In this document: in pieces, positions 1 to 10,289 of the stretch | Layout: each line of letters starts with the position of its first letter | How positions within the stretch are numbered: the stretch's first letter is position 1 | NCBI GenBank assembly: GCA_051382295.1 | Contig: JBBCAW010000005.1 | Location: 62,367-126,366 of the forward strand | Source of the DNA: Bdellovibrionota bacterium FG-1 | GTDB lineage: Bacteria; Bdellovibrionota; UBA1018 | Direction: 5' to 3' | DNA length: 64,000 bases | Position numbers and translations under genes: made by a program | The notes under the pieces: generated by a model | Told to the model about the DNA's origin: nothing | Databases searched by the model: none | What the model saw: only the letters and a program-made list of their open reading frames with translations

Positions 1-86
1 TGAGTCCCTATTTTTTGCTTTAGTTTTTTAAGCCATCGACGAAAAGAATAGTGTTCGGCCTTGCGACCGTTCTTCTTGTTTTTCAT
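1..86 (-). CDS. Small basic peptide, array copy 1 (partial, runs off window): MKNKKNGRKAEHYSFRRWLKKLKQKIGT...
   Basis: ATG at 86 preceded by AAAGGAGGT; visible residues identical to copy 2, with two synonymous nucleotide differences. Confidence 0.8.
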   Translation of the reverse strand, partial: MKNKKNGRKAEHYSFRRWLKKLKQKIGT

Positions 87-157
87 CGGGGTTACCTCCT
101 TTCTTGTGAAAAGGGGGTAGCTCCATCTTTCCTGTCCGATTTGGCAGGGACCCATTG

Positions 158-174
158 AGCAACTTCAGTGCCAG
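158..174 (-). promoter_or_regulatory. sigma54 (RpoN) -24/-12 promoter, array unit 1
   Basis: Minus strand CTGGCACTGAAGTTGCT matches YTGGCAC-N5-TTGCW with exact GG-N10-GC spacing. Confidence 0.85.
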
Positions 175-298
175 CGTTATCGCGATTTTCTCGATGTTTT
201 TGCTGGAGTTTGGTTCGATACGCGGTGAGTGCGGCTGAAAGTCGGATCAGTGAATTGCAGTCTTCTTCAAAAGCTGAGTGCTAAGCGCTGATGGCTCT

Positions 299-362
299 AA
301 AAAAACCAAACCGGACAGCTCCCATCCATGAGAACTCCAGTTGCGCTGCACCCCGAGCCTCC
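299..362 (-). terminator. Conserved 3' tail of unit 2: stem-loop, CATGGATG mini-hairpin, 13-nt segment complementary to the 5' leader, then a U-tract
   Basis: Minus strand GAGGCTC...GAGTTCTCATGGATGGGAGCTGTCCGGTTTGGTTTTTTT; near-identical copy at 742-804. Confidence 0.55.
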
Positions 363-515
363 TCATTGATGATCTAGATAGAACAGAACCAACTTGGCTA
401 AAAACCACAAAAACTGGGATAGAATTTTTTGAGTCCCTATTTTTTGCTTTAGTTTTTTAAGCCATCGACGAAAAGAATAATGTTCGGCCTTGCGACCGTT
501 CTTCTTGTTCTTCAT
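363..515 (-). CDS. 50-aa basic/hydrophobic peptide, array copy 2; putative type I toxin-like membrane peptide
   Basis: MKNKKNGRKAEHYSFRRWLKKLKQKIGTQKILSQFLWFLAKLVLFYLDHQ; SD AAAGGAGGT 7 nt upstream of ATG 515. The upstream ATG at 584 lies before the predicted sigma54 start site. Confidence 0.8.
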   Translation of the reverse strand: MKNKKNGRKAEHYSFRRWLKKLKQKIGTQKILSQFLWFLAKLVLFYLDHQ

Positions 516-586
516 CGGGGTTACCTCCTTTCTCATTAAAAGGGGGTAGCTCCATCTTTCCTGTCCGATTTGGCAGGGACCCATAG

Positions 587-603
587 AGCAAGGTTGGTGC
601 CAG
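587..603 (-). promoter_or_regulatory. sigma54 -24/-12 promoter, array unit 2
   Basis: Minus strand CTGGCACCAACCTTGCT. Confidence 0.85.
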
Positions 604-741
604 ATTTATGTGCAACTTCCGGGGGTTTTTGCCTGGGGGTTGGTTCGATACGCGGTGGGATGGTCGAAAATCGGATCAAATGCTGAAGTGATCTTCTTCT
701 TCGAAGGCTGAGAGCTAAGCGCTGATAGCTGATTGCTCTAG

Positions 742-804
742 AAAAACCAAATCGGACAGCTCCCATCCATGAGAACTCCGGTTGCGCTGCACCCAGAGCA
801 CTCC
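742..804 (-). terminator. Conserved 3' tail of unit 3
   Basis: Homologous to 299-362; CTGTCCGATTTGG followed by TTTTT on the minus strand. Confidence 0.55.
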
Positions 805-960
805 TCACGGCTGTCTTAGATAGTAGGATATTGCATCGGCTAGAATCACTAAAACCTTGGCTAAGACGTAGAGTCGCCAAGATTTCAATTTAAGTTTTTC
901 CAGCCGAATCCGAGACGAATAATGTTCGTTGGTCTTACGACCAATTTGTTTATTCTTCAT
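805..960 (-). CDS. 51-aa basic/hydrophobic peptide, array copy 3 (diverged C-terminus)
   Basis: MKNKQIGRKTNEHYSSRIRLEKLKLKSWRLYVLAKVLVILADAISYYLRQP; same SD and leader; length and charge/hydropathy pattern kept despite DNA divergence. Confidence 0.8.
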   Translation of the reverse strand: MKNKQIGRKTNEHYSSRIRLEKLKLKSWRLYVLAKVLVILADAISYYLRQP

Positions 961-1031
961 CGGGGTTACCTCCTTTCTTGTTAAAAGGGGGTAGCTCCAT
1001 CTTTCCTGTCCGATTTGGCAGCGACCCATCG

Positions 1032-1048
1032 AGCAAAGTTGGTGCCAG
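1032..1048 (-). promoter_or_regulatory. sigma54 -24/-12 promoter, array unit 3
   Basis: Minus strand CTGGCACCAACTTTGCT. Confidence 0.85.
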
Positions 1049-1214
1049 GTTTATGTGCAACTTCCTGGGGTTTTTGCTGGAGTTTGGTTCGATACCCGAT
1101 GAGGATGGCCGAAAATCGGATCAGTGATGGGGTGAATAGGACAGAAAGCCGGGATGGCGTGTGGGTGTATTCTGAGTGGCATGGGCCCGCAAGCTCTGGT
1201 CGTTGAGCAGTATC

Positions 1215-1292
1215 TACTGCCGCGCGGAGGCAGCTCGTGGCGTTCACCCCGACCTCGGCGCAGTGTACTGCCGCGCGGAGGCAGCTCGTGGC
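1215..1292. repeat. Two direct copies of a 27-bp REP-like palindrome TACTGCCGCGCGGAGGCAGCTCGTGGC
   Basis: Exact copies at 1215-1241 and 1266-1292; internal CTGCC/GGCAG hairpin; third copy inverted at 57580-57603. Confidence 0.85.
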
Positions 1293-1371
1293 ACTCACTC
1301 CGAGCTGCTCGCTTTAAAAAGTTGCTCTAAATGCAGACTTAGGTTTCACTACTGACGGGAGGTTTCCGAAA

Positions 1372-9857: not shown

Positions 9858-10190
9858 TCAGGCGACCAATAGTTCCAGCACTGCTGGATTCAAAGAAAGA
9901 AGTTGCAACAGTCTTGCCGCCGCTCCTGAAGGGGTCTTTTGGCCCTGCTCCCAAGAACGAACCGTAGACGGTGTGACGTTCAGCAAAGCCGCGAAAAGAG
10001 GCTGACTTAAGCCACAGCCTTCCTTTCGTAAGCGGCGAATGGCAGCGGCTGTCCACTTCGGTGCTGGGCCAGGTACTTCTACCGCGTGTTCCTTGGCTTT
10101 TAATTGACCCTTGCTATACCGAATGGCCTCATGCAATCCCTGCCTAAGTCCTTCGGCCATTGATTTAGGTTCCCGTTTATCGGATGCCAT
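9858..10190 (-). CDS. XRE-family HTH protein, HigA-like antitoxin
   Basis: IRRLR...LSQPLFAALLNVTPSTVRSWEQG.KTPSGAAARLL; AGGAG SD before ATG 10190. Confidence 0.85.
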   Translation of the reverse strand: MASDKREPKSMAEGLRQGLHEAIRYSKGQLKAKEHAVEVPGPAPKWTAAAIRRLRKEGCGLSQPLFAALLNVTPSTVRSWEQGQKTPSGAAARLLQLLSLNPAVLELLVA

Positions 10191-10201
10191 AAAGCTCACT
10201 C

Positions 10202-10275
10202 CTAATTATTGAGAATTTCAGCTTCAATCGTTCGAAGAAGGTCGTCTCCTCCCCGATCAAAAAGACGCGTTTCAT
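10202..10275 (-). pseudogene. Remnant of a RelE/HigB-like toxin gene
   Basis: MKRVF start, then in another frame DRGGDDLLRTIEAEILNN-stop, resembling the HigB-2 N-terminal helix; lies directly upstream of the HigA-like gene. Confidence 0.5.
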
Positions 10276-10289
10276 ACTCACACACAGTG

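Follow-up and report, generated by a model that had tools for sequence, protein, structure and literature searches.

A family of small peptide genes with predicted sigma-54 promoters in a Bdellovibrionota bacterium: type I toxin-antitoxin-like units that may be transcribed with competence genes

Introduction

What use could a bacterium have for a row of near-identical small genes, each with its own sigma-54-like promoter and each encoding a short peptide that is cationic at one end and hydrophobic at the other? Such a row occupies the left edge of a 64,000-nucleotide (nt) stretch of the Bdellovibrionota bacterium FG-1 genome (assembly GCA_051382295.1, contig JBBCAW010000005.1, positions 62,367 to 126,366), called the window below. 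The initial annotation of the window likened the row to type I toxin-antitoxin loci; it proposed an undescribed family of activator-gated, membrane-active peptides that spreads by duplication, acting either on the producing cell or, if the host is a predator, on prey or competitors. The present analysis follows the family beyond the window, through the genome and the order to which the host belongs, and finds that its upstream element is common to dprA, comM, radC and ssb. The best explanation, held at about even confidence, is that the units are type I toxin-antitoxin-like modules and that, in one Bdellovibrionota order, they are transcribed together with the natural-transformation (competence) genes.

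Type I toxin-antitoxin loci occur commonly in chromosomes, and what they are for has long been debated. Here a whole toxin-like family appears tied to one physiological state, that of DNA uptake and recombination; candidate purposes (growth arrest during transformation, a brake on uptake, addiction against curing) can thereby be compared.

From a tandem array to a dispersed family

The array comprises three complete units on the minus strand, spaced 429 and 445 base pairs (bp) from start to start, and the annotation had described it accurately: every unit has its own TGGCAC-N5-TTGC promoter, a conserved leader and tail and an open reading frame (ORF) of 50 or 51 amino acids (aa). The count had been given as at least three. 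Three there are; leftward extension completes unit 1, whose ORF runs past the window edge but is whole in the contig (stop at window -66, 3' arm of its closing helix at -124 to -111), and then enters unrelated genes, so that the array has exactly three units. The remark that non-coding parts are better conserved than the peptide C-terminus stands: identity among the three units is 58-60 of 61 nt in the leader and 54-56 of 58-59 nt in the 3' tail, as against 34 of the last 66 coding nt between units 3 and 2. Units 1 and 2 differ by two silent changes in 153 nt and encode the same peptide. Peptide length is kept among the copies, as had been said; hydropathy, said to be kept with it, is so only roughly (best 19-residue Kyte-Doolittle mean 1.78 in unit 3 and 1.29 in units 1 and 2). 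The array is unlikely to have arisen in assembly: its copies are not identical in sequence, and other genomes contain members of the family too.

An iterated profile search of this genome finds 25 intact copies and three decayed ones (a 3' half, one with an internal deletion and one truncated 5' part) at 19 loci, which bears out the suggestion of spread by duplication. A peptide profile built from 24 distinct sequences matches 26 of the 116 genomes of the order, this genome included; the relatives lie in 25 of the 115 others, with 1-18 matches each. The same profile matches none of 309 genomes sampled from the phylum outside the order, where only 17 candidates were scored per genome. As a single short and insensitive query, the unit 3 peptide has no relative among plasmids, and none among viral contigs, where 83 candidate stretches yielded no confirmed case. 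Two protein collections return 58 and 38 matches, nearly all of 38-53 aa and named only 'hypothetical protein'.

The family also appears to be new, as the annotation had supposed. Pfam offers nothing significant for the peptide (best E 0.03, to one unrelated family), nor do NCBIfam, PHROGs, PADLOC or PDB; Rfam has no match at threshold for the unit RNA; and the nearest named cluster of the Atlas, TisB, is insignificant at 0.77. Judged by sequence, the peptide is no member of the named type I families (Hok, Ldr, Fst, Ibs, TisB, AapA) within the libraries searched. The open-access literature, outside which most subscription papers lie, contains no sigma-54-driven or competence-wired type I toxin that could be found. 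An undescribed family working like aapA/IsoA and hok/Sok is thus the apparent description, and predicted lists in supplements or in T1TAdb could contain members.

The surroundings of the units differ from locus to locus. Among their 102 neighbouring ORFs are paralogues with DUF4423, genes of housekeeping function and several that resemble type II toxin-antitoxin genes (such as HipA, PIN and nucleotidyltransferases). Neighbours are unrelated between loci, and the unit is a stand-alone cassette; its copies are dispersed, have no neighbour in common and are in some cases decayed.

The peptide

The comparisons that follow use 54 units, of which this genome supplies 25 and relatives 29; two of an original 56 were dropped for lack of a promoter region. 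Their peptides are 41-53 aa long with a median net charge of +8; the composition is cationic first and then hydrophobic, with a conserved R-x-x-L-E-K-L-K stretch, and 19-residue hydropathy reaches at least 1.6 in 47 of the 54. AlphaFold predicts one helix, residues 5-49, at a mean predicted local distance difference test score of 76. No cleavable leader is evident to the eye in the peptide alignment.

Pooled pairwise ratios of nonsynonymous to synonymous substitution (dN/dS; the pairs are non-independent) lie at 0.39-0.46 at all distances, and the reading frame relative to a fixed internal anchor is kept in 52 of 54 units. By these measures the small ORF, initially taken to encode a real peptide, specifies a genuine coding product under purifying selection.

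A messenger RNA predicted to close on itself

The predicted transcript is about 270 nt long and closed by a covarying 14-bp helix between its 5' and 3' ends. Folds of units 3 and 2 are well below those of 200 shuffles (z = -6.6 and -4.3). In all 54 units the best fold closes the transcript by a helix of 10-19 bp that starts 0-4 nt from the predicted +1, and the Shine-Dalgarno sequence (SD) is paired with a probability of 0.6-1.0 (computed folds, for which the z values come from 12 shuffles only). Across 48 aligned units the pairs of the closing helix form in 97.8% of cases, both sides having changed at 10 of the 14; the SD hairpin is 82.7% paired, with covariation at 4 of 7 pairs; and the start-codon helices are weaker, at 69-77%. 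The whole structure of 56 pairs is 83% paired, against 38-50% in slid controls, a score favoured by its having been drawn from the same 48 sequences. Within the closing helix there are 79 G-U cells and 2 A-C cells, which argues that it forms as RNA on the coding strand and is not a DNA inverted repeat.

With its predicted SD occlusion, this layout would be that of a type I toxin messenger RNA (mRNA) such as aapA or hok, which agrees with the architecture first proposed for the array. A hidden SD in the primary transcript is named as a hallmark of type I toxin-antitoxin systems (PMC6733600). The aapA primary transcript is described as non-translatable, held by a 5'-3' helix and activated by 3' trimming (PMC6733600, PMC5416894); its antitoxin promoter lies inside the ORF, where silent changes inactivate it (PMC5416894, PMC6733600).

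The units may have a counterpart of that antitoxin. Scored across the whole unit, the opposite strand has its best -10-like position at one fixed site early in the ORF (mean 3.9, next best 2.9), which may be likened to the aapA arrangement. Of 48 distinct segments with the SD hairpin, 42 fold more stably when read as antisense RNA (a strand comparison in which two units lacked the anchor and one segment was mis-cut), and the inner positions of the hairpin have 32 A-C against 5 G-U; the unit 3 hairpin, more stable on the plus strand, is on that ground also a putative antitoxin hairpin. The stretch around the predicted antisense start is the most variable transcribed part, with 0.22 changes per site where the remainder of the ORF has 0.07 (13 disjoint close pairs), as would be expected if antitoxins diverge for specificity, and equally if the stretch is simply a loop. 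No antisense sigma-54 site is conserved across units. These features suggest a putative antisense antitoxin RNA, probable at best in view of the contrary signs set out further below.

The sigma-54 promoter and its upstream palindromes

All 25 intact copies have an exact GG-N10-GC at 85-92 nt ahead of the ATG, and the GG (followed by GC or GT) is present in 26 of 29 units of relatives; the sigma-54 promoters read in the array extend to the family. The genome contains rpoN and 25 matches to the activator domain. De novo discovery in 53 upstream regions returned the palindrome GTCCGAAnTTCGGAC at 10.9 bits, compared with 6.5-7.0 in five shuffles. Its centres fall at -68 (15) and -48 (17) from the GG, with 10-bp phasing, and it forms pairs 20 bp apart at -68/-48, -58/-38, -77/-57 or -92/-72. 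With 28 units from genomes other than this one as its training set, a matrix matches 23 of the 25 units here, compared with 27 of the 188 remaining sigma-54-like sites. Enhancer-binding proteins use tandem, helically phased sites; the pairs are predicted to be the upstream activator sites of the sigma-54 promoter, which would supply the activator gating that had been proposed.

The palindrome is seen elsewhere too. Strong tandem copies stand near the starts of mobile-element-like genes at C18:7432, C106:14927, C141:21773 and C63:6039 of the genome (three of them, we take it, are copies of one 330-aa transposase-like gene and the fourth is IS91-like), as if mobile elements were further users of the switch. 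A related palindrome, GTCTAA-N3-TTAGAC, lies close to the uvrA start in several genomes (L212-L241) and about 92 nt before three sigma-54 promoters here (C5:6071, C5:43069 and C12:28803), one of which precedes a presumably CarD-like gene; it is possibly the site of a second regulator. Downstream of the promoter, at C5:6071-6291, comes a leader of 220 nt that contains a long internal inverted repeat, and after it a 160-aa ORF divergent from a Tad-like gene.

A predicted switch in common with dprA, comM, radC and ssb

In this genome the arrangement of promoter and palindromes also precedes comM, dprA-topA, one ssb, radC and an operon of XPB helicase and Bax1 nuclease (full promoter arrangement, L141:11647-14230). 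Conservation was assessed in 30 chosen relatives, 15 with the peptide and 15 without, at a score threshold of 17 and with a list of phases widened slightly after an earlier result. A promoter-plus-pair score of at least 17 was reached before dprA in 7/30, comM in 4/17 and radC in 6/13; the corresponding controls were 1/28 for recA, 3/283 for other genes and 3/60 for out-of-phase positions.

A second test made no use of the units. From 60 dprA, comM and radC loci, 47 belonging to the family were taken, of which 44 had a promoter-like anchor; de novo discovery in these 44 upstream regions gave the identical consensus (8.1 bits, against 6.1-6.4 in four shuffles), and the resulting matrix matches 23 of 25 units of this genome, at -68 and -48, compared with 10 of 188 controls. 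A tandem palindrome pair is found at one ssb in 8 of 22 genomes and at the other ssb in none of 8. At strict thresholds the element is kept, for each gene, in a minority to half of the genomes. Of the 44 dprA, comM and radC genes, 20 have their ATG 27 nt downstream of the GG, the very distance at which the closing helix of the units starts; this suggests near-leaderless transcripts for these genes (L081-L138), and by the same spacing the starts of the three units in the array were set at about 1019, 574 and 145.

The competence reading of this regulon rests on its match to known ones. In Haemophilus parasuis there are CRP-S sites at all four genes (comM, dprA, radC, ssb; PMC5809987). Several species induce radC in competence (PMC4630621), and incoming DNA is processed by DprA, Ssb and ComM, dprA and comM being transformation genes (PMC12378983). 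The shared regulon is accordingly read from its gene content as probably a competence regulon; a DNA-damage regulon is possible but doubtful. The open-access literature searched offers no competence control or comparable regulon for Bdellovibrionota.

For comEC, this genome has a sigma-54-like site with a half palindrome in phase. The gene encodes a divergent ComEC of about 700 aa and adjoins comM (C33:23.4-25.6 kb); it is missed by Pfam PF03772 and found by tblastn with the proteins of relatives. A weak-scoring ComEC of like kind occurs across the family.

What the units may do

The explanation preferred here, a type I toxin-like family loaded with the competence regulon, can be set out as a sequence of events. 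An enhancer-binding protein would bind the two palindromes 20 bp apart and open the sigma-54 promoter, and the promoters of dprA, comM, radC, one ssb and the XPB-Bax1 operon would be opened together with those of the units. The transcript of about 270 nt, as its covariation suggests, would close by the 14-bp helix and hide the ribosome-binding site, and so be stored untranslated. Trimming of the 3' end, by analogy with aapA and hok, would open the mRNA for translation. A short antisense RNA from the promoter inside the ORF might cover the start region and neutralise the opened form. The peptide, to go by its composition, would insert into the inner membrane, its cationic half facing the cell interior, and depolarise the membrane or arrest the cell. 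The net effect would be that toxin message is loaded only in the DNA-uptake state, and the outcome a growth pause, or death for any cell left without the antitoxin, as might happen where incoming DNA takes the place of the locus. The shared palindrome would then mark out, for an uncultured order, a candidate competence regulon under sigma-54, and provide a handle for finding its activator.

Several observations count against this account. A phased scan of this genome alone gives 12 non-unit matches, compared with 14, 14, 6 and 11 in shifted controls; a single-genome scan is thus not above background, and the case for the shared switch rests on gene identities and on conservation in relatives. 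Many dprA, comM and radC promoters have no clear palindrome, and the sequences compared are related, so that the counts overstate independence. The full arrangement is found before comEC in 0 of 12 relatives and before comF in 1 of 4 by eye; a search for ComEA gave only helix-hairpin-helix matches in proteins of about 800 aa, which we take to resemble Tex; for these reasons competence in the order is itself only putative. A search for a self-regulated or otherwise unusual activator among the 25 candidates singled out no cognate. As for the antisense RNA, its -35 is poor, no U-tailed terminator was found for it, Tyr codons and pairing with the start region also explain the letters of the -10, and 5 of 48 SD hairpins favour the coding strand; the start-codon stem, too, has more A-C than G-U (60 against 40), so that this bias is not unique to the SD hairpin.

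A bolder form of the same explanation, tentative and on balance doubtful, makes the units a competence-triggered addiction module, one that has borrowed the transformation switch of its host and stockpiles stable toxin mRNA only in cells about to recombine foreign DNA. Were the locus lost by transformation, the short-lived antitoxin would be lost with it, and the cell would die. The chromosome-curing idea is reviewed in PMC12378983 and is joined here to the architecture of the units. If true, the module would be a selfish defence against chromosome curing, costless outside competence; it could explain the 0-25 scattered copies per genome and the rapid change at the predicted recognition end of the antitoxin, and it would reveal a competence regulon controlled by sigma-54 and an enhancer.

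A rather unlikely alternative accepts the tie to competence and supposes a non-lethal brake on DNA uptake: a single-pass inhibitor or shut-off timer, delayed by mRNA processing, that either serves the host or protects the copies from being cured. The switch common to dprA, comM, radC and ssb suits a brake, as does the single hydrophobic helix, and the conserved R-x-x-L-E-K-L-K could be its binding surface; there is a precedent in ComI of the Bacillus subtilis plasmid pBS32, described as having one transmembrane domain and blocking competence (PMC12378983). A brake, however, has no need of 25 copies, of decayed copies or of a possible antisense RNA, and the family is missing from 90 of the 116 genomes of the order, some of which keep the palindrome at dprA and radC.

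Quite unlikely is a stress toxin after the manner of TisB, in which the regulon would answer DNA damage or single-stranded DNA and the peptide would give dormancy during repair. Membership of ssb, radC and the XPB-Bax1 helicase-nuclease operon agrees with this, and so do the failure to find ComEA and a comEC without a clear palindrome pair; TisB, moreover, is an SOS-induced type I toxin (PMC8167048) and was the nearest, if insignificant, named cluster in the Atlas. Yet dprA and comM are transformation genes (PMC12378983), and the genes that a damage regulon would lead one to expect lie outside: the arrangement is absent at recA (1/28) and uvrA (0/29), no promoter was found directly upstream of recN in five genomes, and the lexA-imuA region has no palindrome match. 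On these comparisons the element would not belong to the SOS/LexA regulon.

Two apparent targets in this connection were rejected: palindrome matches at recQ and recA of this genome, which lie inside coding sequence, and uvrA, suspected from two genomes and set aside on the count just given. Most genomes of the order do have a conserved sigma-54-like element at recA, consensus TGGTACGGTCGTTGCT, without the palindrome pair (28 relatives, L160-L187, and this genome's C13 near 106.75 kb). Between the divergent lexA and imuA (L142 near 2.4 kb) lies a 16-bp palindrome that is unlike that of the units and is a candidate LexA box.

It is very unlikely that the unit is a functional RNA or DNA element whose ORF is incidental, be it a CsrA-binding regulatory RNA or a miniature inverted-repeat mobile element. 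An ANGGAN hairpin loop with four closing pairs occurs in 31 of 54 leaders, the genome has csrA, the RNA parts are better conserved than the peptide, and the distribution is patchy and multi-copy; but a dN/dS of about 0.4, in-frame indels and a conserved SD speak for the peptide, terminal repeats that tolerate G-U and not A-C pair as RNA, the promoter and palindromes lie outside those repeats, and csrA sits in a flagellar locus. A role for CsrA is kept as a minor lead. Most improbable of all are exported peptides, whether for the prey lysis or competition that the initial annotation had entertained or for fratricide that frees the DNA of neighbours: the cationic-hydrophobic composition, the many diverged copies, the Bdellovibrionota host and the competence-linked killing known from other bacteria (PMC6783263) would fit, but no exporter or transporter, processing peptidase or immunity gene recurs among the 102 neighbouring ORFs, the shared regulon has no link to predation genes, and an mRNA locked against translation suits a product that acts on its own producer, which leaves this part of the annotation unsupported.

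Features of the array and adjoining DNA

Table 1. Positions of the three units and their parts within the window
Feature	Window positions	Strand	Remarks
Unit 3 distal upstream palindrome	1107..1121		centre 68 nt before the -24 GG
Unit 3 proximal, weaker palindrome	1087..1101		centre -48
Unit 3 sigma-54 -24/-12 element, GG-N10-GC	1033..1046	-	TGGCAC-N5-TTGC at 1047-1033; predicted start 1021-1019
Unit 3 closing helix, 5' arm	1006..1019	-	pairs with 746-759
Unit 3 anti-SD/SD hairpin	961..998	-	more stable on + strand
Unit 3 ORF, 51 aa	805..960	-	960-805; net charge +9, hydrophobic residues 30-48, one predicted helix
Unit 3 putative antisense -10 hexamer AATAAT	918..923	+	antisense RNA would run from ~930 through the leader
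Unit 3 3' untranslated hairpin and closing helix 3' arm (746-759)	746..804	-	
Unit 2 upstream palindrome pair	642..676		662-676 strong, ~642-656 weak
Unit 2 sigma-54 -24/-12 element	588..601	-	TGGCAC-N5-TTGC at 602-588; predicted start 576-574
Unit 2 leader	516..574	-	5' arm 561-574, anti-SD/SD hairpin 516-553
Unit 2 ORF, 50 aa	363..515	-	515-363; net charge +11
Unit 2 putative antisense -10 hexamer AATAAT	476..481	+	
Unit 2 3' untranslated hairpin and 3' arm (305-318)	305..362	-	
Unit 1 upstream palindrome pair	213..247		233-247 and 213-227
Unit 1 sigma-54 -24/-12 element	159..172	-	TGGCAC-N5-TTGC at 173-159; predicted start 147-145
Unit 1 leader	87..145	-	5' arm 132-145, anti-SD/SD hairpin 87-124
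Unit 1 ORF, first 29 codons inside window	1..86	-	whole ORF 86 to -66; 50-aa peptide same as unit 2

Just upstream of unit 3, at window 1215-1306, a 41-nt palindromic repeat is present in two copies 51 bp apart; six more matches to it lie elsewhere in the genome. Two small gene pairs, one at window 9858-10281 and one about 2.2-2.8 kb before the window (L001 near 9.2-9.8 kb), resemble type II toxin-antitoxin modules to the eye, each with a helix-turn-helix antitoxin and a short toxin.

Comparison with known systems

In hok/Sok and ldr/Rdl, a stable closed mRNA is thought to be activated by 3' trimming; the Ldr genes form tandem direct repeats, and the peptides are of about 35-50 aa. The units resemble them in the closed mRNA, in the tandem direct repeats (Ldr) and in the small peptide. 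They differ in that neither Pfam nor Rfam gives them a match, that an overlapping leader ORF was not noticed as conserved in them and that the plasmids and viral contigs searched contain no match.

With tisB/IstR the units have in common that transcription of a type I toxin is tied to a global, DNA-related regulon (PMC8167048). TisB, however, is LexA-repressed and its antitoxin is described as non-overlapping, whereas the units are predicted to depend on an activator at a sigma-54 promoter, and recA, uvrA and lexA lie outside their regulon.

Joint control of comM, dprA, radC and ssb is described for the CRP-S/Sxy regulon of Pasteurellaceae (PMC5809987) and for the RocR-controlled genes of Legionella (PMC12378983). 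In contrast to both, the candidate regulon here uses a pair of 15-bp palindromes and sigma-54-like, near-leaderless promoters; comEC is weak in it and ComEA not found, and toxin-like genes are its most numerous targets. ComI of pBS32 is similar by description only, as a small single-pass membrane peptide linked to competence (PMC12378983); it is plasmid-borne, whereas the units are chromosomal, multi-copy, apparently induced with the competence genes and translation-locked.

The units resemble aapA/IsoA of Helicobacter pylori (PMC5416894, PMC6733600) in having several chromosomal copies, a small peptide, an mRNA (about 250 nt long in aapA) with a 5'-3' closing helix (11 bp in aapA, 14 bp in the units), local hairpins that hide the SD and, as a prediction in the units, a promoter for the antitoxin within the ORF. 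The two differ in sequence, no similarity being found in the libraries searched, and in peptide length (30 aa in AapA, 41-53 aa in the units); the SD of the units is held by the local hairpin and not by the long-range helix itself, and their antitoxin is putative. Where aapA has a plain -10 box, the units have a sigma-54 promoter with an upstream activator pair.

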